Shown here piece by piece: positions 4,398-63,798 of a stretch of 64,000 bases of DNA. The stretch is from Planctomycetota bacterium. Its GTDB lineage: Bacteria > Planctomycetota > PLA2 > JAEUHO01. The stretch spans positions 1 to 64,000 of the forward strand of contig CBDCWP010000031.1 in NCBI GenBank assembly GCA_965223505.1, given 5' to 3'. The first letter of the stretch is position 1. Every line of letters begins with the position of its first letter. The notes under the pieces were generated by a model, which saw only the letters and a list, made by a program, of their open reading frames with translations, was not told where the DNA came from and made no database searches. The position numbers were made by a program, and so were the translations under genes.

Positions 4398-5664
4398 GAG
4401 GGTGTACCGTTCTTTCTGTAAATGGCTCCCCGGAGGAGAGGCGCTCGCTTCGCTTGAATCAGCTAGCTGATTCAAGCGAAGCGGGCGCGCCGCCATCTCC
4501 CGGGGCGAACTGAGTGGCGGATCAACGCCGTACCTTTGCAGGTAACGACACCACGCAAAGGAGGAACGACGTGACCCACCACGAACAGCGTACGCCTTGG
4601 GGCGACGCACTGGAAGCGCTCAGCGAGAACGGGTTCGACGGCATGGCTGAGGCGATGCGGGTGCTGGTGAACGAGGCCATGAAGGTCGAACGCAGTGCCT
4701 TCCTCGGCGCCGAGCCCCACGAACGCACGGATCAGCGCCGCGGCTACGCCAACGGCTTCAAGCGCAAGCGCGTCAGAACCCGCTTGCGCGAGATCGACGT
4801 CCAGGTGCCCCAGGTTCGCGACGTCGAGGGCGGCGACACGTTCTACCCCTCCAGCCTTGAACGCGGCCAGCGAAGCGAGAGAGCGCTCACGCTGGCCCTG
4901 GCGGAGATGTACGTCCAGGGCTGTCTCGACGCGGCGTGTCGAGGCGATCACGAAGGTGCTTTGCAACGGCCTTGGAGATCAGCTCCACGAGCGTGTCTCG
5001 AGCAGCTGCGCTGCTCGACGAGGAGCTCGAGCGCTGGCGCACACGTCCGCTCGGCGCGTTCAAGTACCTCGTACTCGACGCTCGCTACGAGAAGGTGCGC
5101 CACGGCGGATCGGTGCGCGACTGCGCTGTGCTGATCGCCATCGGCGTCGATTCTCACGGCAAGCGCAGCGTGCTGGGAACGAGCGTGAGCCTCTCGGAGG
5201 CCGAGGTCCACTGGCGCGAGTTCCTCGCTTCTCTCCAGGACCCGCGGCCTTCACATGGCGTCGAGCTCATCACCAGCGACGGCCACAAGGGCATTGCGGC
5301 CGCGCTGGCGTGCGCGGTTCGCCGGCGTGGCCTGGCAGCGCTGCCAGTTCCACCTGCAGCAGAACGCGCAGAGCTACGTTCCGCGCCAGAAGCTTCGACG
5401 CGACGTTGCCGCTGACCTTCGCGCCGCGTTCAATGCGACGTCGCGTCGCGAGGCCGAAGAGAAGCTCAAGGCCTTCGTGAAGAAGTGGGACAAGCCCGCG
5501 CCCGACCTGGCGCGCTGGGCCGAAGAGAACATTCCGCAGGGCTTCACCGTGTTCGATCTCGGCCTGAACGAAGCGCAGCGCAAGCGCGAGAACCTGAATC
5601 AGCAGATCCGCCGCCGCACCATTGTTTCCGAACAGCAGAGCGCGGTGCTCATGAGATACGCTGC
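4398..5664 (+). mobile_element. Second IS256-family element, a related but non-identical isoform, frameshifted and lacking a recognisable right end
   Basis: Same left TIR GAGGGTGTACCGTTCTTTCTGTAAAT at 4398. The transposase (GTG 4571) is split over ORFs 4514..5134, 4936..5415 and 5255..5680. The 3' end decays by multiple deletions. Confidence 0.88.
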
Positions 5665-5930
5665 CCGAACGACCTACTGAGGTTGGGTTATCGCCGCCTA
5701 TTCTCTTCGCCGAGACGAGCGTCATCGTACGCTTGAGCGGCTGAGCCGGATAACTCGCGATCAGTACGCCCGGCGCTCATCGACGGCCTCATCATCTTGC
5801 CTTGCTCCTTGATTGGAGGAAGCGCGCCAGGAGACCATTTCCCATCCTCAGGAGCGACGCTGACTCGCCCGCTCACTTCGTGAGCGCATCGTTACGGCTG
5901 GAGAGCAGAACGTTAAGGAACTTCTCAGGA
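5665..5930 (+). repeat. Deletion-riddled copy of 3973-4389
   Basis: Collinear exact blocks such as CCGAACGACCTACTGAGGTTGGGTTATC, CATCTTGCCTTGCTCCTTGATTGGA and AGCGCGCCAGGAGACCATTTCCCATCCT. The copy is 266 nt versus 417 nt for the original. Confidence 0.9.
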
Positions 5931-6007
5931 GTCCCACAAGTTCGCACTTTGAGAAAGCATCGTCGGCAGTTCTCCTGTCGTCGAGCGGGGATCTAGAAAC
6001 GGCGGCC

Positions 6008-6658
6008 ATGGTGAAACTTGTTGGTGTGGCGGTCTCGCAATGTGAGAACTGGGGGTACGCCCAGATTCCACTTCTACTGCGTGGCGACCGCAGCCTTCAA
6101 GATGATCTCGTCGATGAGATCCTCGCTGGCCTACATAGGGAGTGGCCGCGCAACGTTGCTTTCAATGGAGACCAACCGTCCTTGAGCGCGAGTGGACATC
6201 CACACTGGCACTCATATGCAGAGCTGATCGCGAGATCTGATCTTCTCACGAACCACTTGGAACATCAGTTGAGCACTGGGGTTGTTGAGAGTGCCGGTGC
6301 CGAAATTTCTCTTCGGAGTGCAACCTGCGTACTCCTTCAACGGCCCCACAGTTCGGTGGCGGCGTCGGTCTTCGCGAGGAGCTATCCGGATTCTGTGCGT
6401 GCTGCTCGCGAGGAGGCGGCAAGGTGCCTCTTGTCCAGCCGAGAGATGTCCGAAGATACTTGGTACTCCTTGTTGTCTCGATCTGAACAACTGTCGTCAA
6501 GTGTGCGGCAGCGCCTAGTAGCTCGACTCGCGCATGATGCCGACCTGCTCGTGCGGGTACTGGATCGAATTGTAGAGGAGGACTTGGAGCTGGCGGCACA
6601 ACTGAGACGCCATGCTGAGGAGCACTTCGATGCCGTTCGAACCGCCGAGAAGAAGTAG
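6008..6658 (+). CDS. Helical hypothetical protein; probably the 3' part of the gene starting at 3795
   Basis: 216-aa ORF on the same strand with similar Leu/Arg-rich helical composition. It follows the duplicated segment that ends at the IS insertion point. Confidence 0.5.
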   Translation: MVKLVGVAVSQCENWGYAQIPLLLRGDRSLQDDLVDEILAGLHREWPRNVAFNGDQPSLSASGHPHWHSYAELIARSDLLTNHLEHQLSTGVVESAGAEISLRSATCVLLQRPHSSVAASVFARSYPDSVRAAREEAARCLLSSREMSEDTWYSLLSRSEQLSSSVRQRLVARLAHDADLLVRVLDRIVEEDLELAAQLRRHAEEHFDAVRTAEKK

Positions 6659-6852
6659 CCCACCCTGCGTTCGCGCTCTCGCCTTGACGCCCCCCAAGCT
6701 GTCGTGTTTCCGTGGTGGTGCTCCTGCCGGGAGCTGTGCTCTTTGACTTCCGCGTTCGTGCACTCAGCTTTCGTAAAGCGGGGGTCATCCGTTCAACGGT
6801 AAGCGTCCGGCGAAACCCGCCTTGCGTTCGTCGGCGAGTCACGTAGGGGACG

Positions 6853-8460
6853 CTACGCGCGAGCGAAGAGCTTCTTCAGCGCGCTCTGGCGTCGCTGCTC
6901 GACGTCCGGCAGGAAGTGTTCCTTCCATCCGTGCGGCGTGAGCTTGGTCACATCCGAGCACGTGGCGATGCGCAGCAACACGTCCTGGAAGTACTCGCGC
7001 GGATTCACGCCCGCGGCCTTGCAGCTCTCCACCAGGCTGTACATTCCCGCGGCCGTCTCGCCGCCGGCCTGGTTGCCTACGAACATCCAGTTCTTGCGTC
7101 CCACCGCGACGCCTCTGAGCGCGCGCTCCGCGGCGTTGTTGTCGATCGGAAGCCGCCCGTCCTCGGTGTAGCGCACGAGCGCGTCCCAGTTGGATAGCGC
7201 GTAGTCGATGGCCTGGCCCATGGCGCCTTTGTCCAGAACCGTCGAGCGCGTTGCCGCGAACCACGTCCGCAGCGCGCCAAGTCGCGGCAGGGACTCACGT
7301 ACGCGAAGCTCTCTTCGAGCTTTCGCGTCCAGGTCCTTGCCGAGCTTCTCGATTGCGTACAACTCGCCGATCTGGCGAATCGCTTCCTTGGCCAGCTTCG
7401 GCTCGCTCGACTCCGCCGCCACGAACTTCCGACGCGCGTGTGCCCAGCAGGCCACTTCCGTGGCCGTGCCGTGCGTGAAGAACTTGTCGTAGCCCGGAAA
7501 CGCATCGGCCACGATGTAGCCGCCGAAGTCGCCGAAGATCTTCTGTGGCCCGTCCCGGCTGCGAGTCTGCGTGAAATCGAAGAAGCAACGGCCGTCGATG
7601 TCGCGATAGATCCACACCCGCGCCTGGCGCTTCACGCCCGTGCTGTCTTGAAGCATCGTCACCGGTGTGTCGTCGGTGTGCACGATGTCCGAACCCAGAA
7701 TCTCGCGCCGCAGTTGATCCACGATGGGCTCCAGGAGCTGTGCGCAGCGGATCGAGGAAGAAGAGAGCACCGAGCGCGAGAGCGAAAGGCCTTCCGATCC
7801 GTACTTCTTCTCCTGCCGGTGATACGGCATGTGATTCAAGAACCGCTCCGTGAGCACGTGCGCCAAGAACCCCACACCCAGGATGCCCTTGTCGATCACC
7901 CGCTCAGGACCCGCCGCGGTCACCACGTTCTCTTGGCAACTTCGGCAGCTGTACTTCACCCGCTCGATCTCGTGCACCAGCGAGAACTCCACCCGCTCGA
8001 GCTCCTTGCTGGTTTGCTTGCCCATCGGCTCCAAATGGCCGCCGCAGGGGCATGAGCGCTCCGTCTCCGCAAGCTCGAACGTCGTCTTGAGCACCGGCAG
8101 GTGCTCGGGGAACTGGTTGCGGCGCCCCTTCTTCTTGCGCGTGTGCGCAGGAACCTGGATCTGGCTCGTGGCCACCGCACCCTTGGCCTCAGGCCCGCGC
8201 AGCGCTCGCTCGAGGATGCCGGCCAGGAACAACTGCGCGGATTCAAGCGGCGCAGCGTTGGTCGATTGCTTCTCCGAGCCGCCCCAGATCATGCGCTTGA
8301 GCGCATCCACGTTTTGTAGGAGTTGCGCGATCTTCGCATCGCGCGATTCGATCGCAGCGTCGCGCTCTCCGATCTTCGCGTCGCGCGCCGACACCTCGTT
8401 CTCGAGCTCATTGATACGTTCGAGAAGGGCCGTGCGTTCATCCATGCGCGCTGCGTTCAT
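6853..8460 (-). CDS. tnpC: IS66 transposase TnpC
   Basis: Coiled-coil N-terminus, CPCGG...CRSC zinc finger, HTDDTPV, ACWAHARRKF, IDNNAAERALR and GRKNWMF. Confidence 0.95.
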   Translation of the reverse strand: MNAARMDERTALLERINELENEVSARDAKIGERDAAIESRDAKIAQLLQNVDALKRMIWGGSEKQSTNAAPLESAQLFLAGILERALRGPEAKGAVATSQIQVPAHTRKKKGRRNQFPEHLPVLKTTFELAETERSCPCGGHLEPMGKQTSKELERVEFSLVHEIERVKYSCRSCQENVVTAAGPERVIDKGILGVGFLAHVLTERFLNHMPYHRQEKKYGSEGLSLSRSVLSSSSIRCAQLLEPIVDQLRREILGSDIVHTDDTPVTMLQDSTGVKRQARVWIYRDIDGRCFFDFTQTRSRDGPQKIFGDFGGYIVADAFPGYDKFFTHGTATEVACWAHARRKFVAAESSEPKLAKEAIRQIGELYAIEKLGKDLDAKARRELRVRESLPRLGALRTWFAATRSTVLDKGAMGQAIDYALSNWDALVRYTEDGRLPIDNNAAERALRGVAVGRKNWMFVGNQAGGETAAGMYSLVESCKAAGVNPREYFQDVLLRIATCSDVTKLTPHGWKEHFLPDVEQRRQSALKKLFARA

Positions 8461-8818
8461 CTATACGCACACGTCGGACATGACGCGAATGAACTTTTGC
8501 CGAGAACGGCTCCAATCCGTCGAGCAACATCGCAAGCCACGAACGATCGACCTCGCGGCGCGATGCACGTCCGGGCAGCGAGAAGCGCGGGAACGTGCCG
8601 CGCTCCAATCGCTTGTACAGAAGCCACAGTCCGTTGCGGTCCCAGAAGAGCAGCTTGATACGATCACGACGCTTGTTGGTGAACACGAACAGATGCCCCG
8701 AGAGCGGGTCGTCGCCGAAGACGTCGCGAACGACCTGGCACAGCCCGTCGTGCGCCTTGCGAAAGTCCACCGGCTCGCGCGCTACGAACACGCGCACCGC
8801 GTCCGGCAGGCTCAGCAC
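8438..8818 (-). CDS. tnpB: IS66 accessory protein TnpB
   Basis: PVDFRKAHDGL, LFVFTNKRRDRIKLLFWDRNGLWLLYKRLERGTF. GTG start at 8818 overlaps the tnpA stop. Confidence 0.93.
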   Translation of the reverse strand: MLSLPDAVRVFVAREPVDFRKAHDGLCQVVRDVFGDDPLSGHLFVFTNKRRDRIKLLFWDRNGLWLLYKRLERGTFPRFSLPGRASRREVDRSWLAMLLDGLEPFSAKVHSRHVRRVRIDERSAHG

Positions 8819-50759: not shown

Positions 50760-53700
50760 CTACGGGCCGGGGATCCGTAGCACGATGCCCGTCGTGCCCG
50801 GCGTGACCGCCTCTTCCTTGTTCGACTTGTTCTCGCCGGTACCCGCCTGCAGGTCGTAGGGCTCGTCGATCAGACCGAGATGCTCGAAGTTGCCGTCGGC
50901 GTCGGTCTTGATCCAGCGGTACCACGTCTTGCTCTGCGCCTTCACCCAGAAGTTGGGCTTCGGGCTGCCGTCCGCCGTCTCGACACGACCCTTGATGGTC
51001 AAGCCCTCGACCAGCTCGACGGTGATGTTCTTGGCGTCGGCCGCGAACGGGCCCGCCAGCGCGTAACGGTTGTCGCCGCGTCTCATCGCGGCCACCATCC
51101 ACTTCTCGTCCTTGCCGCCGATCGTGATCGTCCAGGAACCGTCCTCCGCAGCCTTTCCGTAGACCGCCTTCTGTGGATCGCCACCCTCGCGCCAGGCCCG
51201 GATCTGGAACTTGGGCGCGTCGCTGCCGGCGCCGAGCAGCTTGCCCCGCAGCTTGACGGCCGTCGGGACGACGATCTCGACGCCCTCCGCCGGCGCGTTG
51301 ACCGTCGTCGCCGGCGGCGCCGGGCCCCCGTCCTGTCGGTTGATCATGATCTTGTAGCTGCCGCGCTGCAACCCGGCGAGCTCGAACGTCCCGTCGCTCG
51401 TCGGCTGATTCCAGCCGCCGGCGTGCGCGCCCTCCTCGGTCTGGGCGTATATCCAACACTGGGTAAACGGCTTGCCGTCCTCGCTGCGCACGACGCCCTT
51501 GACCGACACGCCTTGCTCGAACTGCAGCTCGAGGTTGTCGGTGCCGGGGCGCACGTCCTTCAGCATGATCGGCGCGAACATCTGCTTGCCGTCGACCCAA
51601 TTGCTGTTGACGGTGAGGTTCACCATCACGTCGTCAGGAATGCCGGCGATCGTGAAGGTGCCGTCGTGCGCGACCTGCGTGTTGGCGTTGCCGTAGTGGC
51701 CGTCCGCCTTCTGCCAGCTTGCGTTGGCCCAGCCGCCGGTGCCGGCCTTGCCATCCGGGCCCGTCACGCGGCCCTTGATCGTCTGACCGATCGCCAGCGT
51801 CACCACGATGCCCTTCTCGCCCGATTTCACGCTGAGGTTCTTCGGTTTGATGAACTCCTGGGGCGGCGTGATGTTGAGCGAGATCTCGCCGTCCTTCAGA
51901 CCGCCGAGCCGGAACAGCCCGTCGGCGGCCGTGCGAACGGTCATCGTTCCGTGCTGGACGTTGACGCCGGCGACCGGGTTTCCGTCGGGCCCCTTCACGA
52001 TGCCGTCGATCTCGAGCCCGGTCTCGAGCCGGATCTCGACCGGCTCGCTCGGCACGGTCTCCAGCTTGACCGACTTCGTCTGGACGTTGAGCGGCAAGCC
52101 GTCGCGCCCCTTCGCGTTCGAGACCGTGATCGTGAAGGGCGGGTTGCCCTTGACCGTTCGCCGGAAGTGTCCGTTGACGACCTCGTTCGCATTGCTTCCC
52201 GGGTAGTACATCTGCTGGTTGTTGCCGGACTGGCCCTTGCCCTTGATCGCGACGTTGCACAACGGGACCGGCTCGCCCGCACTGTCGAACACGCGACCCT
52301 CGATCGTGACGGTCTGCGGCTTCTCGTAGACGAAGGTGAGCCCGATGGCGGGCGCTTCGAACTTCTCACCGATGTTGACCTGGCCCGTCTGCGTGTGCAT
52401 CACGATCTGGACGGGTCCCTCCTTGGCGCCCTTGAACTCGAAGTGGCCGTCCTTGTCGGTCGAGGCGTGGACCCAGTTGCCGCCGCCGCCGCCCATCGGC
52501 TGCAAGTTCAGGCCGAGGTTCGGCACGCCTTTGCCGTCCTTGTCGACGATGCGCCCGCTGACCGAGACACCGGCCAGCAGCTCCACTTCGACGTCATCGC
52601 GCACTTCGCCGGCCTTCAGCGCGCCGATCGCCTGCTGTTGCTGCTTCGCGACGAAGGTCGAGGAATGGACCCAGAGGTTGTACGTGCCCGCGGGAAGGTC
52701 GACGAACTCGAACGTGTTCTCCGGACCGACCTGCTTGTAGGTCGCGTCGCCGGCGAGATGCGACTGCGGTCCCCAGACGTTGATGCTGACCGAGGAGGTG
52801 TCGCTCTCGTCGGGACGGATGACCTTGCCCCGAATCGTCGCGCCGTGCGCGAGCTTGAGCTCGAGATCGGCCGTCTCTTCGCCCTCCTTGTACGCCAACG
52901 GCGCGGACTCTCCGCCCGCGAAGCCCTTCTTCTTGGCGTAGAGAACCAGCCCATCCTTCGGTGGCAACGACCGGACGGTGAACGTCCCGTCACGGTCCGT
53001 GACAGCGAGCTCGTTGAGCTGGTTGCTGTACCAGTTCACACCCCACTGATAGGCGACCTGCGAGAAGTTGAAGTTCTTGCACAGGATCTTCGCGTCCGCC
53101 GCGGGCGCCCCGTCGGGATCGAACACGACACCCGAGACGACGCGTCCCGGGGCGAGCAGGATGTCGCGCTCGACCGTATCGCCCTTCTCCGGCATCACGA
53201 TGGTGAGTTCGGCCGGCGCACCGGTGTTCGCGTTCGGATCGTAGGCCACGGGCTGGTTGGCTGTCGGCGCGAGCTGCGGCAGGTAGTACGCGTCGTGCAT
53301 GGCCACGATCACCAAGCGCCCTTCGGCGACGCCCTCGAAGACGAAGCGTCCGTTGGCGTCCGCTTCGACGATCATCGGTGGGTAGTTGTCGACGCCCGTC
53401 GCGCTCCGGGCCTGGTAGAGCCGCACTTCCGCCTTCGCGATGCCCTCCTTGGTCTCGTTGTTCAAGACGCGGCCCGTCACGCGACCGCCGCGGACCATCG
53501 TGAGGTCGAGCTCGGTCTCGGCGCCTGCCTTGATCTCCGTCTCCTTCAGTCGCCCGTTCGCCTTGGTCAGCGTGCGTGCGAGATAGCCGTCCGCGAGAAT
53601 GCGAGCGGAGGTGATCTTCCCCTCCGGGACGCCCTCGATGCGGTAGTCGCCTGCGCCGTCGCTCACGCCCGTCAAGGTCGCGTTGCGCGTCGTCGTCGTC

Positions 53701-54629
53701 TCGCCTTCCTCGATCTCCTGCATGACGGAGATGAGGACTTCGGCGCCGACGACCGGTGTCGCCGACGTATCGGCGACCTTCCCGAAGAGCGTGCCACCCT
53801 TCTCGCCGAGCCGGATCACGAGCTCGCCCTCGTGCGGCGTCGCCGCCTTGATGCCCGTCACCTTCACGCGTCCCGGCACCGTGACCGTAAAGGAGAGCGA
53901 GCCCGACGGGACGGCATCGAATTCGAACGCGCCCGTTGTCGTGTCGCTCATCTCCACCGGCATGGCGAACCAACGCTTCTTGAGCTCCTGCGAGTACCAG
54001 GAGACGGAGAGTGCGGCGCCGACGGGCTGGTCGCCGGCGTCGACCACGCGCCCGTTCAGGCGTGAGCCGGGCAGGATGTAGATCTCGCCGCCGCCGCCCA
54101 AATTCCATTGGTTCAGCGTCACGGTATGGACCGTCGACACCTTCGGCGCTTCGGGCCACGCGCGGAAGTGATATTTGCTCGCGGCGACGTCGTCGAAACG
54201 GTAGCGACCGTCTTCGTCGGTCGTCGTCTCGGCGACCCGTCTCCAGGTCTGCGCCGGGGTCCGCAGCTGTCGAAGGTCGCGCTCGAGCCGGTAACGAGGG
54301 TTGTTGCGTATCCACGTGCGCGGGTCGCTGTAGTCGATGTCGCCTTCGTCCTCGTGCATCGTGACGCGCATGCCCGCGACGGGCTTGCCGTCCTCGTCCT
54401 TCACGAAGCCCTGGACGTGGAAGTCGCCTCCCGGTAGCGCTGCTTCTTCGGGGCTGTTGATCGCTGCGCCGGTGCCCTTGAGCCCGGGCCCTTCCTGATC
54501 GACGATCGTTTCACCCTCGTCGCCGTAGTACGCCCCGCCGCCGCCGGTGTCGGCAAACGGGTCGAGGATGAGGACGACCGCGCCGACGGCCAGGCCGAGC
54601 CCCAGAACCAGAAAGACCACCTTGCCCAT
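50760..54629 (-). CDS. Large membrane-anchored protein with many carboxypeptidase-regulatory-like / prealbumin-like beta-sandwich repeats
   Basis: GGAGGT RBS, N-terminal TM, and recurring I.GRV.D..G.P..G and TD.DG.F...GL units across 1289 aa. Confidence 0.88.
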   Translation of the reverse strand: MGKVVFLVLGLGLAVGAVVLILDPFADTGGGGAYYGDEGETIVDQEGPGLKGTGAAINSPEEAALPGGDFHVQGFVKDEDGKPVAGMRVTMHEDEGDIDYSDPRTWIRNNPRYRLERDLRQLRTPAQTWRRVAETTTDEDGRYRFDDVAASKYHFRAWPEAPKVSTVHTVTLNQWNLGGGGEIYILPGSRLNGRVVDAGDQPVGAALSVSWYSQELKKRWFAMPVEMSDTTTGAFEFDAVPSGSLSFTVTVPGRVKVTGIKAATPHEGELVIRLGEKGGTLFGKVADTSATPVVGAEVLISVMQEIEEGETTTTRNATLTGVSDGAGDYRIEGVPEGKITSARILADGYLARTLTKANGRLKETEIKAGAETELDLTMVRGGRVTGRVLNNETKEGIAKAEVRLYQARSATGVDNYPPMIVEADANGRFVFEGVAEGRLVIVAMHDAYYLPQLAPTANQPVAYDPNANTGAPAELTIVMPEKGDTVERDILLAPGRVVSGVVFDPDGAPAADAKILCKNFNFSQVAYQWGVNWYSNQLNELAVTDRDGTFTVRSLPPKDGLVLYAKKKGFAGGESAPLAYKEGEETADLELKLAHGATIRGKVIRPDESDTSSVSINVWGPQSHLAGDATYKQVGPENTFEFVDLPAGTYNLWVHSSTFVAKQQQQAIGALKAGEVRDDVEVELLAGVSVSGRIVDKDGKGVPNLGLNLQPMGGGGGNWVHASTDKDGHFEFKGAKEGPVQIVMHTQTGQVNIGEKFEAPAIGLTFVYEKPQTVTIEGRVFDSAGEPVPLCNVAIKGKGQSGNNQQMYYPGSNANEVVNGHFRRTVKGNPPFTITVSNAKGRDGLPLNVQTKSVKLETVPSEPVEIRLETGLEIDGIVKGPDGNPVAGVNVQHGTMTVRTAADGLFRLGGLKDGEISLNITPPQEFIKPKNLSVKSGEKGIVVTLAIGQTIKGRVTGPDGKAGTGGWANASWQKADGHYGNANTQVAHDGTFTIAGIPDDVMVNLTVNSNWVDGKQMFAPIMLKDVRPGTDNLELQFEQGVSVKGVVRSEDGKPFTQCWIYAQTEEGAHAGGWNQPTSDGTFELAGLQRGSYKIMINRQDGGPAPPATTVNAPAEGVEIVVPTAVKLRGKLLGAGSDAPKFQIRAWREGGDPQKAVYGKAAEDGSWTITIGGKDEKWMVAAMRRGDNRYALAGPFAADAKNITVELVEGLTIKGRVETADGSPKPNFWVKAQSKTWYRWIKTDADGNFEHLGLIDEPYDLQAGTGENKSNKEEAVTPGTTGIVLRIPGP

Positions 54630-54815
54630 TCACACCTCCGCGCCACCCGGTCCGGAACGATGGCGGCTTCGGGGTGCGCCCAGGCGTCCTCCCCGCCGAG
54701 CGCGGCTCCAAACCGGGGGGCTTCAGCGTACGCCCAAACGAGGGCGCGGTTTGTCAGCTGCGGGTCAGGAAACGAAAGGCGGGTGCGCTGCATCCCGGGC
54801 TGCTACGCTCCTCAG

Positions 54816-55439
54816 GTGAGTGACGCAGAGAGCCAACCCGCGGCGGACGGCCCGTCGCCGAAGCGTGACGCCGATCCGGATTTGGTGCGACTCGCCGCCG
54901 GTTTCTACGGCGTGGTCCTGCTGTTCGCGGTCGGCTACGCGCTGTTCTCCGGCAACCACGAGATCAAGAAGATCCTCGGCACCCAGATGCCGACGATCCC
55001 CGCGTTGTTGGCAGGGATCGGCGTCGGCCTGGTCATCGTCTGCGTGGTGCGAATCGGCGCAGAGGTCCTGCCTGCGGTGGACAACGCGGCGACCGCGCTC
55101 GCCGAGCTCCTCGGACCGGTCTCCCGCAAGGACGCGCTGCTCCTGGCGCTGTTCTCGGCCGTTGCCGAAGAGGTGCTGTTTCGCGGTGCGTTGTGGCACC
55201 ACCTCGGGCTCGCCGGGACGACGTGTCTGTTCGGCCTCGTTCACATCGTGCCGAGACGCAAGCTCTGGGCCTATCCGCTGTTCGCAGCGGCCGCGGGGTT
55301 GATTCTCGGTCTGTTGCGGCAAGGCACCGGCAGCGTGCTGCCGCCCATCCTCGTGCACTTCGTCGTCAACGCGCTCAACCTCGTGTGGATCGGCGCGAGG
55401 GCGTCCAAGTCCCCGGCGTCGGCGGGCGATGCCGCCTAG
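54816..55439 (+). CDS. CPBP (Abi/CAAX-type II) intramembrane glutamic endopeptidase
   Basis: AEEVLFRG, FGLVH, HFVVN motifs and multiple TMs. GTG start at 54816. Confidence 0.9.
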   Translation: MSDAESQPAADGPSPKRDADPDLVRLAAGFYGVVLLFAVGYALFSGNHEIKKILGTQMPTIPALLAGIGVGLVIVCVVRIGAEVLPAVDNAATALAELLGPVSRKDALLLALFSAVAEEVLFRGALWHHLGLAGTTCLFGLVHIVPRRKLWAYPLFAAAAGLILGLLRQGTGSVLPPILVHFVVNALNLVWIGARASKSPASAGDAA

Positions 55440-56796
55440 CACCGCGACGACCGGGACCGACGCGCCGAAGGTGCGCCTCGTCGATCACCTTCACGTGTGT
55501 TGGCTGGCGTTCATCACGATCTTCGGCGCGGTCCCGTATCTCGTCGCGTTCGTCCTCTCGCCGGTGCTCGCGCCCTGGATGCGGCGTCGCGGAAGGACCT
55601 ATCTGTCGCAGCCGCCGTCGACGCCGGCGCCGATCCCGGACGTCGATGCGACCGCCTGGAACGGTCGGACGATCTTCGTCGTGGTGGGGGAGGCCTCGGC
55701 CGACCGGTTGGCAGCGCGCGTCGTTCGCCGCATCCTCGACCAATGCCCGGGAGTCCGCGTGCGCGGGTACGGCGGGCCGGAGTGCGCCAAAGCCGGCATG
55801 CTGGTCGACCGGGATCTCACGTCGCACGCCGTCATGGGCTTCTCCGCCGTTCTGGGCACCGTCGGCTTCTGGTGGCGGGTGTGCGCGCAAACGCTCGCGC
55901 GCTGGCGCGAGGAACGACCGGACTTGCTGCTCACCGTGGACTTCGCGGGCTTGAACGTGCGGTTGGCGCGATGGGGGCGGCAGCGCGGCGTTCGAACCGT
56001 GCATCTGGTCGCGCCGCAGCTGTGGGCGCACTCCCCGTGGCGTGCCGGCCGCTGGCGTCGCGCGGTGGACCACCTGCTGGCGATCTTTCCGTTCGAGCCG
56101 CGCTGGTTCGAGCGCTCGGGCATTCGTACGACGTACGTTGGGCATCCGCTGTTCGAAGAACCGCTCGACGAGCCGCGCACGCAACGCAGCTGGCCCGGCA
56201 CCGACGCCGTGACGGTCGAGCTCTGGCCCGGCAGCCGGCGGCGGGAGATCAACGGCCACGCGCCGTTGGTGCTGCGCGCAGCGCGGCGCATCGAGGCGCG
56301 CCTGCCGCGGGTCGAGTTCGTGGTGCGCCTGGCGGAGGACGAACACCGGGTCTGGTTCGACGAGGCGTCGAGCGGCGTGGATCGGCCCGCGCGCATTCGC
56401 TTCGCGACCGAAGCGTCCGAACACGCGCTGCCGCTCGTCGGCGCGCTCTGCGCGTCGGGGACGGCGACCGCGGAGCTGGCCGTCGAGTTGGTGCCGCTGT
56501 CGGTCTTCTACCAGACACGCCGGCGCGCACGGATCGGCGCGTGGGTCGTGCTGACGACACCGTGGTTCTGCTTGGTGAACGTCGTCGCGGGGGAAACCGT
56601 CGTCCCCGAGCGGCTGACGACGGCCAGCCGCGACGCGAACCATGTCGCCGACGATCTCCTGTCTTCGATCGCCACGGCCGACGTCTGGCGAACCACGCGC
56701 GAACGTCTCGAACGTGTTCGCGATCGGCTTGCGTCGCGCGACGTCGCGCGGCGTGCCGCGGCGATCATCTTGAGCGAGCCGGTGGGGAGCCGCTAG
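55429..56796 (+). CDS. lpxB: Lipid-A-disaccharide synthase with an N-terminal hydrophobic extension
   Basis: VVGEASADRLA, GYGGP, AVMGF, VDFAGLNVRLA, VAPQLWA, IFPFE, YVGHPL, PGSRRREI, SGTATAELA, LVNVVAG. Confidence 0.9.
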   Translation: MPPSTATTGTDAPKVRLVDHLHVCWLAFITIFGAVPYLVAFVLSPVLAPWMRRRGRTYLSQPPSTPAPIPDVDATAWNGRTIFVVVGEASADRLAARVVRRILDQCPGVRVRGYGGPECAKAGMLVDRDLTSHAVMGFSAVLGTVGFWWRVCAQTLARWREERPDLLLTVDFAGLNVRLARWGRQRGVRTVHLVAPQLWAHSPWRAGRWRRAVDHLLAIFPFEPRWFERSGIRTTYVGHPLFEEPLDEPRTQRSWPGTDAVTVELWPGSRRREINGHAPLVLRAARRIEARLPRVEFVVRLAEDEHRVWFDEASSGVDRPARIRFATEASEHALPLVGALCASGTATAELAVELVPLSVFYQTRRRARIGAWVVLTTPWFCLVNVVAGETVVPERLTTASRDANHVADDLLSSIATADVWRTTRERLERVRDRLASRDVARRAAAIILSEPVGSR

Positions 56797-56808: not shown

Positions 56809-59508
56809 CTAGGTCGCGCGCTTGCGCAGCCAGCCGCCCGTCGGCGTGTCGCTACGGGCCAGGTCGTGCGGCGTTCCCGAGAAGAGCAGCTTGCCGCCGC
56901 GCTCCGCAGGGCCGGGTCCGATCTCGAGCACGTGATCCGCGGCGCAGATCAGGTGCGCGTGATGCTCGACGGCCAACACGGCGTGGCCGTCGTCGACCAG
57001 GCGCCGCAGGACGTTGGCGAGGTGCCGCACGTCGTGGGGATGCAGTCCCGCGCACGGCTCGTCCAGCACGAAGAGCGTGCGCGCTCGCGACGCGCGCCCC
57101 AGCGCCGCGGCGAGTCGCAATCTCAGTGCTTCGCCTCCGGACACCTGAACCGTCGGCTCACCCAGCGCCAGATGACCCAGCCCCACGTCCGACGCGGCGC
57201 GCAGCGGTGCGGCGACGCGCGGGATGTCGTGGAAGACGGAAGCGGCGTCCTTGATCGGCAGACGCAGCGCCTGATGAATCGAGAATCCCTTTATGCGCAC
57301 GCGCAGCGTCTCGCGGTCGAAGCCCGCGCCTTCGCACACGTCACAGGCCACACGCAGTCCGGGCAGATCTCGAACCGCGGCGCCGCGAACGCCGAGTCCC
57401 TTGCAGGCCTCGCACCGGCCGCCGCGGGTGTTGGCCGAGAAGCGCGACGCGCTCCATCCCTTGGCGCGCGCATCGAGTGTGGCGGCGTACAGCTCGCGCA
57501 GCGGCGCCAGCACGCCGAGCACGCTTCCCGCCGTCGCGCGCGCGTGACGCGCGGGCGCGCCGACGGCGGTCACGACGCGCTCGAATGCGCCGGCGTCGCG
57601 CGTCGTCGCACGCGGCGAAGCCGGCGCGGCGCCTCGGGCTCGCGCGGCGAGGTCGTGCGCGACGACGTCGACGGCGAGTGTCGTCTTGCCGGCGCCGCTC
57701 ACGCCGGTCACGACCGTGAGGCCGCGACGTGGGAACGTGCAGGACAGATCGAGACTGCGGTAGCGAACGTCGTCGAACGCGACGTCGCCTTCGTCGTGCG
57801 AACGCGTCCTGCGGAGCGGCGGCAGCTGCGCGCCTCGAATCGGCGCGTCGGTCAGCGCCGCCGGCTCGGCTTGCGCGATGATGCGGCCACCGTCCTCGCC
57901 GGAGCCCGGTCCGAGCTCGATGACATGATCGGCGTGGTCCAGGGCTTCTTGATCGTGGTCGACCGAGATGACGGAGTTGCCTTCGTCGACGAGCGCACGC
58001 AGGCGGTCTCGCAGTGCTCCCCGGTCCAGCGGATGCAGTCCGACGGTGGGCTCGTCGAGCAGATAGAGCAGGCCGCTCATGCGCGCGGCGCAGGCGCTCA
58101 CGAGCTGCGCGCGCCGCAGCTCGCCGCTCGAGAGCGTACCGGCCCGCCGTTCCAGGGTCAGGTATGGCAAGCCGACGTCGGCGAGGAAGCGCAACCGCAG
58201 GCGCGCGTCTTCGAGCGCCGGCGCGGCGAGCGCCGCCGCGGCGCCGTCGAGCTCGAGTGCGTTCAACCACGCGTTCAATGCCGTTGCCGACAGCGCGCAC
58301 AGCTCCGGCAGGCTGCGGTCGGCGAGCGTGGCAGCACGCGCGTACGGCGACAGCCTGCTGCCTTCGCAGTCACCGCAGACGTCCCAGCGCGCGAGACGTG
58401 TCCAGCGGCCGTGCGCGCTGATGACGCTGAGGAGTCCGGCGCGCTTCGGACGTTTTGTTCCGTCGAGCCAGCGTCGCCGGGCGGCCGCCGGCAGGTCGCC
58501 GAGGAGATCGCGCCCCTCGAGCTCGTGCAAGGCGAGCAGCGAGTCGAGGTGTGCCTTCAGGTGTGCGCGTTCCCTGGCGGGCAGCGCCGTGCGCAGGTGA
58601 CCGGGGATGCGGCGCAGTCGCAGAGACGTCGGGAGAACGCGGTCCGGATCGAGGACCGCGACGACGCCGCGTCCCGCGCAGGTTGCACACGCGCCGGCGG
58701 CGGATTGAAACGACAGGGCGGAGGTGGAGAGTGGTGGATAGGACGTGCCGCACGGAACGCAGTGCGGCCGGTCGGCAAAGTGCTCCACGAACGCGTCGGT
58801 GCCGGGTGGATCGATCGAGGCGGTGAAGCGGTGGTCGCCGATCTGCAGCGCCTGATCGACGGAGGCCGCAAACCGATCGCGTGCGTCGGGCTTCACGATC
58901 AGTCGATCGACCACGACGTCGACGGATGTTCCGGCGGCGACCGCATCGATGTCGAGGTCGTCGATGCGGTGAACGGTGTCATCGAGACGCACGCGGACGA
59001 AGCCTTCGCGTTCGGCTGCGTGAACCGCGTCCGGTCCGTCGCCGTAGGGCGCGCTGAGCACGATGCGCGTGCGTTCCGGCCGGGCGAGAAGGGCGGCGAC
59101 GATCGTCGCGGCAGGCATGGCGGAGATGGGCCGGCGGCAGCGCGGACAGTGGGGTATCGCGGCGCGCATGAAGAGGGCGCGCAGCGCGTAGGTGATCTCG
59201 GTGACGGTACCCAGGGTCTGGCGTGCGTCCGGCGCGCGGTTGGCGAAGCCGGCGACGACGGCCGGCGGCAGGCCGTCGATGCGGTCGACGTCGGGTCGCG
59301 CGACGAGCTCGAGGTCGCGCAGCCCCCGCGCGAACGTGCCGATGAAGCGGCGGCGCGACTCGGCGCCGAGGGTGTCCATGACGAGCGAGGACTTGCCGGA
59401 TCCCGAGATGCCGCAGACGACGGTCCAGGCATGGAGCGGGAAGTCGACGTCCAGGTCCTGCAGGTTGTGGGTGCGGGCGCCGCGGACGTGGATCTTCCGT
59501 TCGGACAT
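56809..59508 (-). CDS. uvrA: Excinuclease ABC subunit A homologue (divergent)
   Basis: VRGARTHNLQ, GISGSGKSS, LSSGE, LDEPTVGLHP; second cassette GVSGAGKTT, VSGGE, LDEPCAGLHP; CxxC zinc pairs. ATG 59508. Confidence 0.85.
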   Translation of the reverse strand: MSERKIHVRGARTHNLQDLDVDFPLHAWTVVCGISGSGKSSLVMDTLGAESRRRFIGTFARGLRDLELVARPDVDRIDGLPPAVVAGFANRAPDARQTLGTVTEITYALRALFMRAAIPHCPRCRRPISAMPAATIVAALLARPERTRIVLSAPYGDGPDAVHAAEREGFVRVRLDDTVHRIDDLDIDAVAAGTSVDVVVDRLIVKPDARDRFAASVDQALQIGDHRFTASIDPPGTDAFVEHFADRPHCVPCGTSYPPLSTSALSFQSAAGACATCAGRGVVAVLDPDRVLPTSLRLRRIPGHLRTALPARERAHLKAHLDSLLALHELEGRDLLGDLPAAARRRWLDGTKRPKRAGLLSVISAHGRWTRLARWDVCGDCEGSRLSPYARAATLADRSLPELCALSATALNAWLNALELDGAAAALAAPALEDARLRLRFLADVGLPYLTLERRAGTLSSGELRRAQLVSACAARMSGLLYLLDEPTVGLHPLDRGALRDRLRALVDEGNSVISVDHDQEALDHADHVIELGPGSGEDGGRIIAQAEPAALTDAPIRGAQLPPLRRTRSHDEGDVAFDDVRYRSLDLSCTFPRRGLTVVTGVSGAGKTTLAVDVVAHDLAARARGAAPASPRATTRDAGAFERVVTAVGAPARHARATAGSVLGVLAPLRELYAATLDARAKGWSASRFSANTRGGRCEACKGLGVRGAAVRDLPGLRVACDVCEGAGFDRETLRVRIKGFSIHQALRLPIKDAASVFHDIPRVAAPLRAASDVGLGHLALGEPTVQVSGGEALRLRLAAALGRASRARTLFVLDEPCAGLHPHDVRHLANVLRRLVDDGHAVLAVEHHAHLICAADHVLEIGPGPAERGGKLLFSGTPHDLARSDTPTGGWLRKRAT

Positions 59509-59688
59509 GGCGCGCCACCGTAACCGCCGACGGGGTTCGGACGATGTTGGCTGGGGGGCCCAGAGCGAGAACACGCGAGGTCGGCGAGCGGGCCCACAGG
59601 GAGAGCACGCGAGGTCGGCCGCGGCCCGATCGCGAGACAGTGTCAGATCACCGGGTTCGCACGGCCCGCCAGTACGCTGGTTCGCCTC

Positions 59689-60417
59689 ATGACGACGCCC
59701 GCAGAGACCCCGCCGACGCGACCGCCCGAGGTGCACCGGCGGCGGCTCTCCGCCGTCTTCGGAACGCTGTTCGGCGGCGTCCTCTTCGCGGCCTGCTTCG
59801 TCCCCTGGGTCAAGGTCGATCCGGCCCAGGCCGAGCGGGTGCAGAAAGCGGTCGCCGTCGAGATCGCAGGCGTCGCCGAACCGTCGCGGGCGACCCGTGA
59901 CTTCGCGCAGGTCTTCGACACCCTCGGCAACACGTCGAGCCTGAGCGGCGTCGACCTGTTCCAGTGGTGCCGGGCGGCGCGCGGCTACCGCGACTCGATT
60001 CGAGCCGGCGAGGCAGGGCGCGCTCGCGACCTGACGCGCAAGATCGATCGCGCGCTCCTCCTCTTCGCCATCGCGCTCGCGGCCATTCCCATCGGCGGCA
60101 TGCTGCTCGGGCTCTACTTCCTGATTCACCGGTTCCGCCGCAACCGCAGCCCCGTGCTGATCCTGGCCGCCATCATCGGCGCGATCGCGATCACGATCGC
60201 CGGCGCGTACGAACGCACGATCAATCCCATTCACGAGGCCGTGCAACCCGGGCTCGGATTCCCGCTGCTGCTCGTCGGCGGCGCTGGATTCCTGCTCGTC
60301 GCCACGTTCGGCGTGACCCGGCGCAACTGGTGGCGCGTGTATCTCGGCGTCGGCGTCACGGCCGCCGGGCTGGCGCTGATGGCGTACTCGTTCCTGCAGC
60401 GGGGAACGGTGCCTTGA
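59689..60417 (+). CDS. Integral membrane hypothetical protein (about 5 TM)
   Basis: Hydrophobic segments with FVPWV and G.GF.L patterns; its stop overlaps the start of the next gene. Confidence 0.75.
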   Translation: MTTPAETPPTRPPEVHRRRLSAVFGTLFGGVLFAACFVPWVKVDPAQAERVQKAVAVEIAGVAEPSRATRDFAQVFDTLGNTSSLSGVDLFQWCRAARGYRDSIRAGEAGRARDLTRKIDRALLLFAIALAAIPIGGMLLGLYFLIHRFRRNRSPVLILAAIIGAIAITIAGAYERTINPIHEAVQPGLGFPLLLVGGAGFLLVATFGVTRRNWWRVYLGVGVTAAGLALMAYSFLQRGTVP

Positions 60418-63197
60418 GCGCAGCCGGACGCAACGTGAAGCACACGACGCACCGCGTCGGACTACTCGTGTTCTTCCTCACGCTGCTCGGGTTGATCGGC
60501 GTCGGCCGGCTCGCGATGGAAGCGTGGCTCAATCGTCCCGCGCCGCGCGAGCTGCCGGAGATCGGCGCGCGCACCGACCAAGCCGCGCCCTTCCTGCTCA
60601 TCATCATCGACGGGTTGCGCGAGTCGGCGGCCTGGGCCGTCGAAGACCCGCCCATGCCCTGGCTGCAGTCGTTCGCGCGCGAGGGCGCGTCGGGTGTCGG
60701 CATCGCGGGCGAGCCGACGCTCACCGCGCCGTGCGTGCGCGCGCTGCTCACGGGACGCCGCCCCGATCTCCTGACCGGATTCCGCAACTTCAACGCGCGC
60801 CCCGTCGGCGGCAGCATCGTCGAGTACCTCGTCGACCGCGGCGGCCGCGCCGGTCACGGCGGCGACGCGGCGGCATACCAGTTCTGTCGTCCGTTCTACG
60901 TCGATGGCGACTTCCTGCAGTTCCCCGACGAGGGCCCGACCGACCAGGGCGAGAACGACGCGGAAGCCGTGCCCTTCGTGAAGGCGCTCATCGAGGACGG
61001 CTGCACGGTCGTCACGCTGCACCTCACCGGTCCCGACCATGCGGGCCACAAGTGGGGCGCGATCGGCCGCGAGTACTGGCAATCCTGTCGCGTGGTGGAC
61101 GATCACATTCGCGGCGTCGTCGAGGCGTTTCGCGCCAAGCACCCCGACGCGACGGTGCTGATCGCCTCCGACCACGGCGTGTCCGCCATGGGCACCCACG
61201 GCGGCGGCGAAGTCTCGGCCAAGCGCGCCCCGTTCGCGCTCGTCGGGCCGAACATCACGCCCGGCGTCCGCAAGGAGCTCGATCAGTGTTCGCTCGCGCC
61301 GACCGTGGCGATGGCGCTCGGACTCCCGATGACGCCGCTGGCGGACGCGCCGCCCGACCCGGAGCTGACGTCGATCCACCAGGGCATCGAGCGCGACGCC
61401 ATGGAGGCCTACGTGCGCGCGCGCCTGGTCGTCGCCGCCGACCTGCGCGGCGACGTCGTCGAGGTCGCGCGCGCGCGGCGCTCCGTCAAGGAGCTGGGCG
61501 GCAAGGACGCGCAGCAGCTGCTCGCGATGGCGGACGACATCAACGCGACCATCAATCCCTCTTCCGCGGGTCACGCGTCCATTGCGCTTCTCCTCGGCGC
61601 GTTTTGGTTGATGGTGCTCGTGAACCTCGTCTCTCGATCCACCGTCGAGATCGTTCTCGGCCGCGTGGCGTCGGCGTATTGCGTCGTCGCGATCCTCGCC
61701 ACGTTCGACCCGCTGCCGGCGCTCTACACCACGACGCCGATGACCTCGGCGATCCTCGTTCTCGTCGGATGCGCGCTCACGCTGCGCGCGGTCGGTTCCC
61801 TGTCCCTGCGCGGCGGCGCGCTCACGCTCGCCTGCCTGGCGGCGGTGCCGGTGCTAACGGGGGCGGGGCTCACCTTGCAGTCGGCGTTCGAGTGGGCGGA
61901 GGACACGGGCCCCGCGTCGCTGCGAATGGCCTTCGCGCTGCTGGCCTTCTCCGCTGCTGCGTTGGCGTTCGTCCGTCCGCGGGCTGCGTCGCTGCGATTG
62001 GCGGGCCGGGCGGCCGCCTCCCCCGGTCTCGTCGCGGCCTTCGGTGGATCCGTCCTCGGTTTCCTGCTGACGTTGCGGCCGTTCATCGACCCGTTCCTGC
62101 ATCTGATGATCGTCTACGCGGTGCTCGGCGTGATCATCGTGCTGCTCTTCGTGTTCACGCGGGCGAAGGGCTCGACGCCCGCGTTCGCGCGGTACGGGTT
62201 GCTCGCGACCGCGCTCGTGCTGTTCCTGGGCACGCGCATCGCCGAGGGCTTCACCGGCGACGTCTGGGTGAACGCCACCGACCTTCGCAGCCCGGTGTGG
62301 TGGGTCGTCGGGCTCAACCTCTCGCTCGCGGCGGTCGGTATCGTCCTCGCGCGCGGTCGCCCCGACGCGCGTGACGCTCCGGGCCTCGTCATCGCCGTCG
62401 TCGCCTGGATCCTCGCGTACGTGTCGCGCGCGTGGATGGACGCGCCGATGGTCGTCACGATCGGGGCCAACGTGCTCGGGCTCGCCGCGCTGTTGGCAGC
62501 GCTCCTCAGCGGCAGTCCGGACGGTCGCTGGTTGGTGCGCATGATCGCGGCGCTCGCGCTCGCGCGCCGGCTGTCGATGTCGGAGGCGGAGTTCTCGGCG
62601 TTCGCGCTGACGGCGGTCGGCGCCGCGTTCGCGTCGCACTGGCGCGGACCGGTGACGCGCTTGCGTGTCGCGTGGTGCGCCGTGGCGTTGTTGGCGCTTC
62701 GGACCGCGATCTTCCACGCGATGGGCTTCAACGAGAGCTTCTCGACGCTGGACGTCGGGCAGGCGTTCGCCGGATTGGAGGGCGGCGACACGCCTGCGCT
62801 CGACGCGGCCGGCGGCGCGGTGATCACGTGGCAGGTGATCGTGGCCGCGATCCAGGTCGCGCTGCGCATGTCGTTGCCCTGGGTGCTGATCCTGGGCGCG
62901 CTGGTGCGCGTGCTGCAGGCGACGCCCGGCGCCGGGCCGGGCATGTTTCGCTGCCTGCTGATGGACCTGGCCGTGACCTTCGCTGCGCGTGGCGCAGCCA
63001 TCGTGACCGCGCTCTGGGCGTGGTGGCGCAGCTCCTGGTGGATGACGAAGGCCTACACGGTCTATGCGTTCGGGGCGGCGGACGTGATCCTGCTGCTGGT
63101 GTGCGCGACGTTGGTCGGGGCGTGGGGCCCGAAGCGGGCAGGCCGTCAACGCCCGGCCGACGAACCGGCTGCCGAGCCCTCGGCGAGCATCGCATAG
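60414..63197 (+). CDS. Alkaline-phosphatase-superfamily transferase with a large polytopic C-terminus, resembling eukaryotic GPI ethanolamine-phosphate transferases (PIG-G/PIG-O)
   Basis: N-terminal TM; IIIDGLR, EPTLTAPCVRALLTG, LHLTGPDHAGH, ASDHG, GTHGGGE; more than 10 TMs, with FHAMGFNESFSTLDVGQAFAG near the end. Start is TTG 60414 or GTG 60435. Confidence 0.8.
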   Translation: MSAAGRNVKHTTHRVGLLVFFLTLLGLIGVGRLAMEAWLNRPAPRELPEIGARTDQAAPFLLIIIDGLRESAAWAVEDPPMPWLQSFAREGASGVGIAGEPTLTAPCVRALLTGRRPDLLTGFRNFNARPVGGSIVEYLVDRGGRAGHGGDAAAYQFCRPFYVDGDFLQFPDEGPTDQGENDAEAVPFVKALIEDGCTVVTLHLTGPDHAGHKWGAIGREYWQSCRVVDDHIRGVVEAFRAKHPDATVLIASDHGVSAMGTHGGGEVSAKRAPFALVGPNITPGVRKELDQCSLAPTVAMALGLPMTPLADAPPDPELTSIHQGIERDAMEAYVRARLVVAADLRGDVVEVARARRSVKELGGKDAQQLLAMADDINATINPSSAGHASIALLLGAFWLMVLVNLVSRSTVEIVLGRVASAYCVVAILATFDPLPALYTTTPMTSAILVLVGCALTLRAVGSLSLRGGALTLACLAAVPVLTGAGLTLQSAFEWAEDTGPASLRMAFALLAFSAAALAFVRPRAASLRLAGRAAASPGLVAAFGGSVLGFLLTLRPFIDPFLHLMIVYAVLGVIIVLLFVFTRAKGSTPAFARYGLLATALVLFLGTRIAEGFTGDVWVNATDLRSPVWWVVGLNLSLAAVGIVLARGRPDARDAPGLVIAVVAWILAYVSRAWMDAPMVVTIGANVLGLAALLAALLSGSPDGRWLVRMIAALALARRLSMSEAEFSAFALTAVGAAFASHWRGPVTRLRVAWCAVALLALRTAIFHAMGFNESFSTLDVGQAFAGLEGGDTPALDAAGGAVITWQVIVAAIQVALRMSLPWVLILGALVRVLQATPGAGPGMFRCLLMDLAVTFAARGAAIVTALWAWWRSSWWMTKAYTVYAFGAADVILLLVCATLVGAWGPKRAGRQRPADEPAAEPSASIA

Positions 63198-63231: not shown

Positions 63232-63798
63232 ATGAAGCGGCTCATCTCGGTCTTCGGCCCGGGTCATCCCACGCGCAAAGAGTACAACCTCGCCGCCGAT
63301 GTGGGTCGTGAGCTCGCGCGTCGCGACTTCGGCGTCGTCTGCGGCGGACTCTTCGGCGTCATGGAAGCCGCGTGCATGGGAGCGAAGGAAGAAGGGGGTA
63401 CGACCGTCGGCCTCCTGCGCACCTACAACCGCTTCGACGCCAACCCCTACGTCGACATCGTGATTCCCACCGGGCTCGGCGACGCGCGCAACATCCTCGT
63501 CGCCACGGCGGGCGAGGCCGCCATCGCCGTGGGCGGACGGCTGGGAACGCTGTCGGAGATCTCCATCGCGCTGAAGCACGGGATCCCGGTCGTCGGGCTC
63601 AACACCTGGAAGCTCGATCGCCACGCGCTGTTCGATCGCTATCTGCCCGCCGCGGCGTCGGCGCTGGAGGCCGTCGAGCTCGTGCTCGAGCTCGCGGACA
63701 AGCGGGAGGCGGAGCGCGCCGCGGGCGAGCCGGAGGTCAAGCCCGGAACCCTGCCGGACGAGGGCGATGACCCTGACCATCCGGAGCTGAGCCTGTAG
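63232..63798 (+). CDS. LOG-superfamily protein (TIGR00725-like)
   Basis: CGGLFGVMEAAC, ANPYVDIVIPTGLGDARN, AVGGRLGTLSEI. Confidence 0.9.
   Translation: MKRLISVFGPGHPTRKEYNLAADVGRELARRDFGVVCGGLFGVMEAACMGAKEEGGTTVGLLRTYNRFDANPYVDIVIPTGLGDARNILVATAGEAAIAVGGRLGTLSEISIALKHGIPVVGLNTWKLDRHALFDRYLPAAASALEAVELVLELADKREAERAAGEPEVKPGTLPDEGDDPDHPELSL

Follow-up and report, generated by a model that had tools for sequence, protein, structure and literature searches.

A polytopic planctomycete protein with a catalytic half resembling that of the eukaryotic GPI ethanolamine-phosphate transferases

Glycosylphosphatidylinositol (GPI) anchoring is regarded as having arisen in eukaryotes, and there is no settled account of where its phosphoethanolamine transferases came from. 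Fungi and parasites cannot live without these transferases (PIG-N/Mcd4, PIG-O/Gpi13 and PIG-G/Gpi7), and mutations in them occur in human GPI deficiencies. In a 64,000-nucleotide stretch of DNA from a Planctomycetota bacterium (assembly GCA_965223505.1, contig CBDCWP010000031.1, positions 1 to 64,000; hereafter the window), a gene for a large membrane protein was described in a first-pass annotation, made from the sequence alone, as a full-length bacterial look-alike of PIG-G and PIG-O. This gene, its protein (the enzyme) and the small membrane protein gene directly upstream are analysed here.

PIG-O/Gpi13 is among the described systems closest to the planctomycete enzyme. Both have one N-terminal transmembrane (TM) segment, a PF01663-type domain, a helical linker and about 15 further TM segments (1+15 by hydropathy in the Gpi13 protein P0217). 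Both also carry PTxT, TG..P....NF, D..GH, DHG and HGG motifs, together with a late motif, F-x3-G-x4-[FL]-S-x-I-x5-F, about 145-155 residues from the C-terminus. PIG-N/Mcd4, represented by a single PigN-type protein (P0196; PF04987 1.7e-71) whose gene model looks damaged at its C-terminus, is likewise homologous in its catalytic domain. In EptA and LtaS the TM bundle precedes the catalytic domain. The enzyme is therefore laid out differently from EptA/MCR-1, OpgB and LtaS, with one TM segment, the catalytic domain and then 16 helices, and its PF00884 match (25.3 bits against a cut-off of 25, residues 218-283) is marginal and secondary to that of PF01663. Xanthomonas NPP (2gsn/7mw8) and human ENPP7 (5tcd/5udy) are soluble or single-pass hydrolases that have no polytopic domain, whereas the enzyme is polytopic and is set apart from the NPP/ENPP class by tree and by score.

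The proposed topology, one N-terminal TM segment, an alkaline-phosphatase (AlkP)-fold domain and a polytopic C-terminus, was borne out by both hydropathy (1+15 hydrophobic segments) and an AlphaFold2 model (predicted local distance difference test score, pLDDT, 84.9; predicted template modelling score, pTM, 0.84). In the model, the N-terminal helix leads into an alpha/beta domain at about residues 53-300, linker helices and a bundle of about 16 helices, three of which come after the late motif (Table 1). The motifs named in the first-pass annotation are all present in the translation: IIIDGLRE, GEPTLTAPC, LHLTGPDHAGH, ASDHGV, GTHGGGE and the late FHAMGFNESFSTLDVGQAFAGL. The late motif ends a helix (residues 742-762) and is followed in the model by a low-confidence loop (770-796) and then by the three last helices.

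The catalytic half and its relation to the GPI transferases

The active-site residues are intact. All 27 aligned family members share D59, T95, T97, D201, H202, H205, D246, H247 and H255 without exception, and the core catalytic residues are also retained in 30 diverse members of the family. The position aligned with Thr97 is the established nucleophile of NPP. With both its metal site and its PTLT threonine intact, the enzyme is predicted to be catalytically competent.

Relationships were examined with an alignment of the narrow planctomycete group (A1), one of 30 diverse bacterial relatives (A2) and one of 20 fungal Gpi13 proteins (A3), the last made up of Sordariomycete sequences only, with an effective sequence number (Neff) of about 2.2. 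The A2 profile matched a fungal GPI ethanolamine phosphate transferase 3 (P0195) with 170 bits (E 3e-44) and the PigN-type protein with 140 bits, against no more than 88 bits for generic AlkP proteins. A hidden Markov model (HMM) of the catalytic domain alone matched Gpi13 as one contiguous segment with 139-158 bits and the PigN-type protein with 133 bits; its matches to generic AlkP proteins reached 44-79 bits and were fragmented. When A2 was compared with the 20 Gpi13 proteins by hhalign, an E value of 7e-37 was obtained; the matched region begins at the N-terminal TM helix, takes in the catalytic domain and linker, and ends in the first membrane-domain helix. The narrower A1 gave 2e-14 against Gpi13, and comparison with single sequences gave 1.4e-27 for PIG-O and 1.8e-27 for the PigN-type protein. 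The stretch after the nucleophile, TG..P.....NF, also aligns with its Gpi13 counterpart, and identity to Gpi13 over the catalytic half is just 21-26%.

A maximum-likelihood tree of 47 catalytic domains contained a split with 97/97 support that divides 34 rows from 13. On the larger side are the bacterial TM-fused family, the planctomycete clade, five Gpi13 proteins and the PigN-type protein. On the smaller side, 12 generic AlkP proteins are joined by a single short relative of 571 aa. The eukaryotic sample in this tree is thin, consisting of five fungal Gpi13 and one PigN-type sequence on a long branch; PIG-G was left out, as was P0195, whose gene model is truncated. The outgroup consisted of AlkP proteins returned by a word-based search. 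A grouping of the catalytic domain with generic pyrophosphatases, named in advance as an outcome that would speak against the relationship, was not recovered.

Bit scores, hhalign comparisons and the tree agree that the catalytic domain is specifically like that of the GPI ethanolamine-phosphate transferases, as had been proposed. On this sequence evidence, the catalytic half, the N-terminal helix and the post-catalytic linker are judged to be clearly related to those of Gpi13/PIG-O and of the PigN-type protein. The best explanation appears to be that the prokaryotic family of the enzyme is a sister or parent group of the eukaryotic PIG-N/Mcd4, PIG-O/Gpi13 and PIG-G/Gpi7 enzymes.

The family and the conserved upstream gene

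The enzyme is one member of a large prokaryotic family and not a unique bridge to the eukaryotic proteins. Its gene is present in one copy in its own genome, and its close relatives all come from metagenome-assembled genomes (MAGs) of Planctomycetota. Distant full-length relatives are numerous: among 1.84 billion representatives, 3487 were matched at E 0.001, thresholds of 1e-10 and 1e-30 left 1116 and 98, respectively, and one cluster of relatives comes from Nannocystis (Myxococcota). Myxococcota, Thermoplasmatota and Verrucomicrobiota supplied the nearest clusters in a language-model atlas (proteins about 800-830 aa long, scores 0.97-0.98), and eukaryotic GPI transferases 3, 1 and 2 followed at 0.92-0.93. 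In public records, the relatives are named 'alkaline phosphatase family protein' or 'hypothetical protein', apart from one JGI record that reads 'ethanolaminephosphotransferase'. Full-text literature searches found no paper dealing with full-length homologues of PIG-N/O/G in prokaryotes, and neither PMC3249071 nor PMC4973528 was found to address the question. It appears that no member of this prokaryotic family has been characterised.

The relevance to the origin of GPI biosynthesis suggested in the first-pass annotation is weakened in two respects. The protein is just one of a large prokaryotic family, and the families of the lumenal GPI mannosyltransferases PIG-M, PIG-V and PIG-B/Z (PF05007, PF04188 and PF03901) were not found in its own genome (92.5% complete). 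None of these three families was matched in 14 prokaryotic control genomes either, which left the searches with no positive control.

Directly upstream of the enzyme gene lies a gene for a protein of 242 aa. Hydropathy confirmed that this is a 5-TM protein, with one N-terminal segment, a loop of about 80 residues and then four further segments; no Pfam or NCBIfam family matched it. In 18 of 22 related loci, the enzyme gene is directly preceded by a homologue of the small gene, recognised in 17 of them by tblastn and in one (L008) by reading of the open reading frame (ORF). Among the remaining four loci, three begin within the enzyme gene and one has just 522 nt of upstream DNA. An alignment of 14 small-protein sequences (A4) showed 25-39% identity across loci, and the loci with the conserved pair all come from kindred genomes. 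In the more distant Planctomycetota MAG L019, the small gene (5219-5959) is sandwiched between a shorter paralogous enzyme gene (2551-5205, forward strand) and the main enzyme gene (5976-8771). The shorter paralogue has catalytic motifs of its own and a late-motif-like FHALGGAES..LD...AF.

The two genes are closely spaced in the window. In the ORF listing of the window, the open frame of the enzyme spans 59964..63197 on the forward strand and offers two candidate starts, TTG at 60414 (927 aa) and GTG at 60435 (920 aa). The TTG start overlaps the stop codon of the small gene (TGA, 60415-60417), and the database gene call (P0002, 100% identical) is the GTG form. In relatives, the enzyme starts 10-15 nt past the stop of the upstream gene; a short intergenic gap is therefore at least as likely as a true overlap. 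Translational coupling of the pair had been proposed in the first-pass annotation; the spacing is tight, but a true overlap is not certain.

The small protein had also been likened, speculatively, to PIG-F, and this analogy found no sequence support: PF06699 (PIG-F) was not matched in the 242-aa protein, nor anywhere in the genome at E values up to 10. The genome differs in this respect from the PIG-O/PIG-G systems, an unrelated small 5-TM protein being conserved in the place of PIG-F. From its conserved adjacency, the small protein is probably a subunit or an assembly or stability factor of the enzyme. A complex prediction with the membrane domain (residues 390-920, A1) and the upstream protein (A4) scored 0.00 in both runs, which is evidence neither for nor against an association.

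Proposed function, counter-evidence and rival explanations

By analogy with its eukaryotic relatives, the enzyme would be a membrane-embedded phosphotransferase of the AlkP superfamily that moves a phospho-headgroup, probably phosphoethanolamine, onto an acceptor in the cell envelope. We favour this transferase function with moderate confidence. The mechanism can be modelled on the threonine and two-metal chemistry of the superfamily. The catalytic domain would lie on the periplasmic side, where Thr97, activated by a two-metal (zinc-type) site, would attack a membrane phospholipid, most likely phosphatidylethanolamine, at its phosphodiester. A covalent phospho-headgroup-threonine intermediate would form with release of diacylglycerol, and a glycan or glycolipid of the envelope, presented by the membrane domain with its 16 helices, would then accept the headgroup on a hydroxyl. 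The conserved late motif may participate in this acceptor step within the membrane domain. The genome encodes a phosphatidylserine decarboxylase, which makes phosphatidylethanolamine a plausible donor.

Several findings weigh against this proposal, and some of them concern the membrane half. PF19316 (PIGO_PIGG) and PF04987 (PigN), the membrane-domain families, were matched neither in the enzyme (E up to 0.1) nor in 27 close relatives (E up to 1) or the 30 diverse relatives (E up to 10). Comparison of the C-terminal domain alone by hhalign, the check proposed at the outset, gave no significant whole-domain match (E 0.69 with A1 and 0.45 with A2), no better than reversed controls, and HMM searches with this domain in both directions did not beat reversed sequences. 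In sliding windows along the membrane domain of Gpi13, the highest score of the A2 tail (17.5, P 0.042) fell on the corresponding window; there was no signal for the A1 tail, and one reversed control scored higher, at 20.8. In addition, the nearest solved structures to the enzyme are hydrolases (Xac NPP and ENPP7). Glycan or lipid biosynthesis genes indicating an acceptor were not found in the neighbourhood; the flanking genes (lpxB, a CAAX protease gene, a uvrA paralogue, genes for CarboxypepD_reg repeat proteins, a PD-(D/E)XK nuclease gene and nadA) hold no pointer to one. The close clade was detected in just 5 of 201 sampled Planctomycetota genomes (E <=1e-20, own genome counted), all of one GTDB family, which marks the function as accessory. 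Within that family the gene occurs in all four of the other genomes sampled, and it was found in none of the four from the sister family and nowhere else in the sample. Finally, a distant and probably myxobacterial member, L039, one of four loci found with P0130, has no small membrane gene in its 1.7 kb of upstream DNA, so that the partner is not general to the whole family. For another distant member, P0109, nothing was found in metagenome contigs.

Scans of 53 representatives (E <=0.001) and of the enzyme's own genome (E up to 10) also turned up neither Pfam family; prokaryotic control genomes, as expected, likewise had no matches. A model of the membrane domain alone (pLDDT 80, pTM 0.84) found nothing convincing among solved structures, and no solved structure of PIG-N, PIG-O or PIG-G surfaced in the PDB by sequence profile or by fold. 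Language-model features of the membrane half alone placed four eukaryotic PIGO_PIGG/PigN clusters nearest, with scores of 0.77-0.79, a result rated as a lead only.

The late motif is the only point at which the two membrane halves match. The best C-terminal hhalign alignment places the motif and the three helices that follow it onto FHFFKTGHQ..LSSIQWD.AF of Gpi13 and its following helices, and both extended full-length alignments likewise superpose the two motifs. In the enzyme family, H761, G764, E767, S770, T771 and G775 of the motif are invariant in 27 of 27 aligned members, as is G780 in the alignment of close relatives. Of 52 full-length clade proteins, 35 carry the pattern F-x3-G-x4-[FL]-S-x-[ILV]-x5-F, as do 13 of 59 diverse representatives and 70 of 119 Gpi13 proteins, at median distances to the C-terminus of 154, 138 and 144 residues, respectively. 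Among 6.55 million residues of six-frame ORFs from the own genome it was found once, at the enzyme's own site, a rarity that overstates its significance given that the pattern was derived after both families had been seen. As a fairer test, a matrix was made from the bacterial motif only; its highest-scoring site coincided with the Gpi13 motif in four of seven Gpi13 proteins. The reciprocal Gpi13 matrix scored best at the bacterial motif in five of 13 bacterial proteins, with per-protein expectations of 0.02-0.2 for these cross-scans. In P0196, the best site of the bacterial matrix was ..HVGFFGTG.., 127 residues from the C-terminus. The PIG-G/PIG-O-like late motif of the first-pass annotation is thus real and is common to Gpi13 with the same spacing and position, but its statistical support is modest.

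Homology of the membrane domain to that of PIG-N/O/G is accordingly plausible but unproven. A more far-reaching proposal is that the whole protein, membrane domain included, shares its descent with PIG-O, PIG-G and PIG-N, that the eukaryotic transferases derive from this prokaryotic envelope-decorating family, and that the enzyme and its 5-TM neighbour work together as the two subunits of a complex, comparable to the dependence of PIG-O and PIG-G on PIG-F. Taken together, these propositions are doubtful at present.

Among rival explanations of the function, the strongest is a membrane-embedded lipid phosphodiesterase of the phospholipase-C or alkaline-sphingomyelinase type, which would transfer the headgroup to water and whose membrane domain would merely bind or extract the lipid. 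The hydrolases among the nearest structures speak for such an activity, but the PDB copy searched apparently contains no GPI transferase structure, so that hydrolases head the structure searches by default. Sequence scores and the tree place the domain with the transferases and not with NPP-type proteins, and the invariant polar residues of the 16-helix domain (H761, E767, S770 and T771) make it more than an anchor. We therefore regard a phosphodiesterase as unlikely.

A transferase of the same kind could also carry another group, either phosphoglycerol from phosphatidylglycerol or phosphocholine, and so perform an OpgB- or LtaS-like function on a PIG-type scaffold. Such a specificity is compatible with the same active site and architecture, but the genome can make phosphatidylethanolamine, and every characterised PIG-N/O/G member is known to transfer phosphoethanolamine; another headgroup is thus rather improbable. 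That the protein is a non-catalytic lipid-binding or regulatory one of the PbgA/YejM kind, retaining the fold only, is very improbable, given that all 27 relatives keep each metal ligand and the nucleophile unchanged and that the TM bundle follows the domain instead of preceding it. A phosphoethanolamine transferase acting on an envelope acceptor thus remains the preferred function.

Genomic setting and significance

The coordinates of the enzyme, its parts and its neighbours are collected in Table 1. The gene downstream of the enzyme, of the SLOG cluster4/TIGR00725 (LOG-like) type, begins 34 nt past the enzyme stop, and no terminator-like site was found between the two. It is found downstream of the enzyme in 16 of 22 related loci, in two of which about 1.6 kb of other DNA intervenes. 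From this arrangement, the SLOG gene is probably co-transcribed with the enzyme gene.

Table 1. Positions of the enzyme gene, its parts and neighbouring genes in the window; the last row refers to L037. Residue numbers are those of the 920-aa form.
Feature	Position	Strand	Evidence or remarks
Small membrane protein gene, 242 aa, conserved upstream partner	59689..60417	+	ORF, hydropathy
Enzyme gene, putative membrane phosphotransferase resembling GPI ethanolamine-phosphate transferases	60435 (or 60414)..63197	+	PF01663 (primary Pfam match) 4e-12, P0002, AlphaFold2 model
N-terminal TM helix, residues 6-31	60450..60527	+	hydropathy peak 8-26, model helix 6-31, aligns with Gpi13 N-terminal TM (hhalign)
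Alkaline-phosphatase-fold catalytic domain, about residues 48-317	60576..61385	+	metal ligands D59, D201, H205, D246, H247, H255
Thr97 codon, second T of PTLT, predicted nucleophile	60723..60725	+	aligns with Xac NPP PSLT nucleophile and Gpi13 PTAT
Helical linker, residues 316-373	61380..61553	+	model helices 316-341, 344-353, 359-373; within hhalign match to Gpi13 (query columns 20-410)
Polytopic C-terminal membrane domain, about 16 helices, residues 378-893	61566..63113	+	model
Late conserved motif FHAMGFNESFSTLDVGQAFAG, residues 760-780	62712..62774	+	invariant residues, alignment with Gpi13
SLOG/TIGR00725-family gene	63232..63798	+	PF18306 6.7e-39, TIGR00725 3.6e-34
UvrA-paralogue-like ABC ATPase	56809-59523	-	UvrA_inter and ABC domains
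lpxB, lipid-A-disaccharide synthase	55429-56796	+	PF02684 7e-58
CAAX/Rce1-like membrane protease	54660-55439	+	
CarboxypepD_reg/Ig-like repeat protein	50760-54629	-	
CarboxypepD_reg/Ig-like repeat protein	L037:4100-7060	-	

The conserved gene order runs from the CAAX protease gene through lpxB, the uvrA paralogue (on the opposite strand), the small membrane gene and the enzyme gene to the SLOG/TIGR00725 gene. The CAAX protease gene overlaps lpxB by 11 nt, and this pair is kept wherever relatives have sufficient upstream DNA. The uvrA paralogue is divergent to the small membrane gene and its position is kept in relatives; its ORF as listed extends to 60246 only owing to the high G+C content. 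The window has about 70% G+C, and long spurious ORFs run in several frames and on both strands over the real genes, so that ORF length alone is no evidence for a gene. Two very large CarboxypepD_reg/Ig-like repeat proteins flank the region, one of 1289 aa and the other of 986 aa, the latter having nine stretches of repeats and a weak match to Por_Secre_tail.

Planctomycetota, Myxococcota and, according to the atlas, Verrucomicrobiota and Thermoplasmatota have members of a large prokaryotic family that shares its overall layout with the GPI phosphoethanolamine transferases and whose catalytic half is specifically related to theirs. The value of the present gene lies mainly in the conserved two-gene unit to which it belongs. 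Once found, the substrate of the family would expose a new modification of the bacterial envelope. Further, the family would offer a tractable model, possibly with a partner subunit, for the phosphoethanolamine transferases of GPI biosynthesis.

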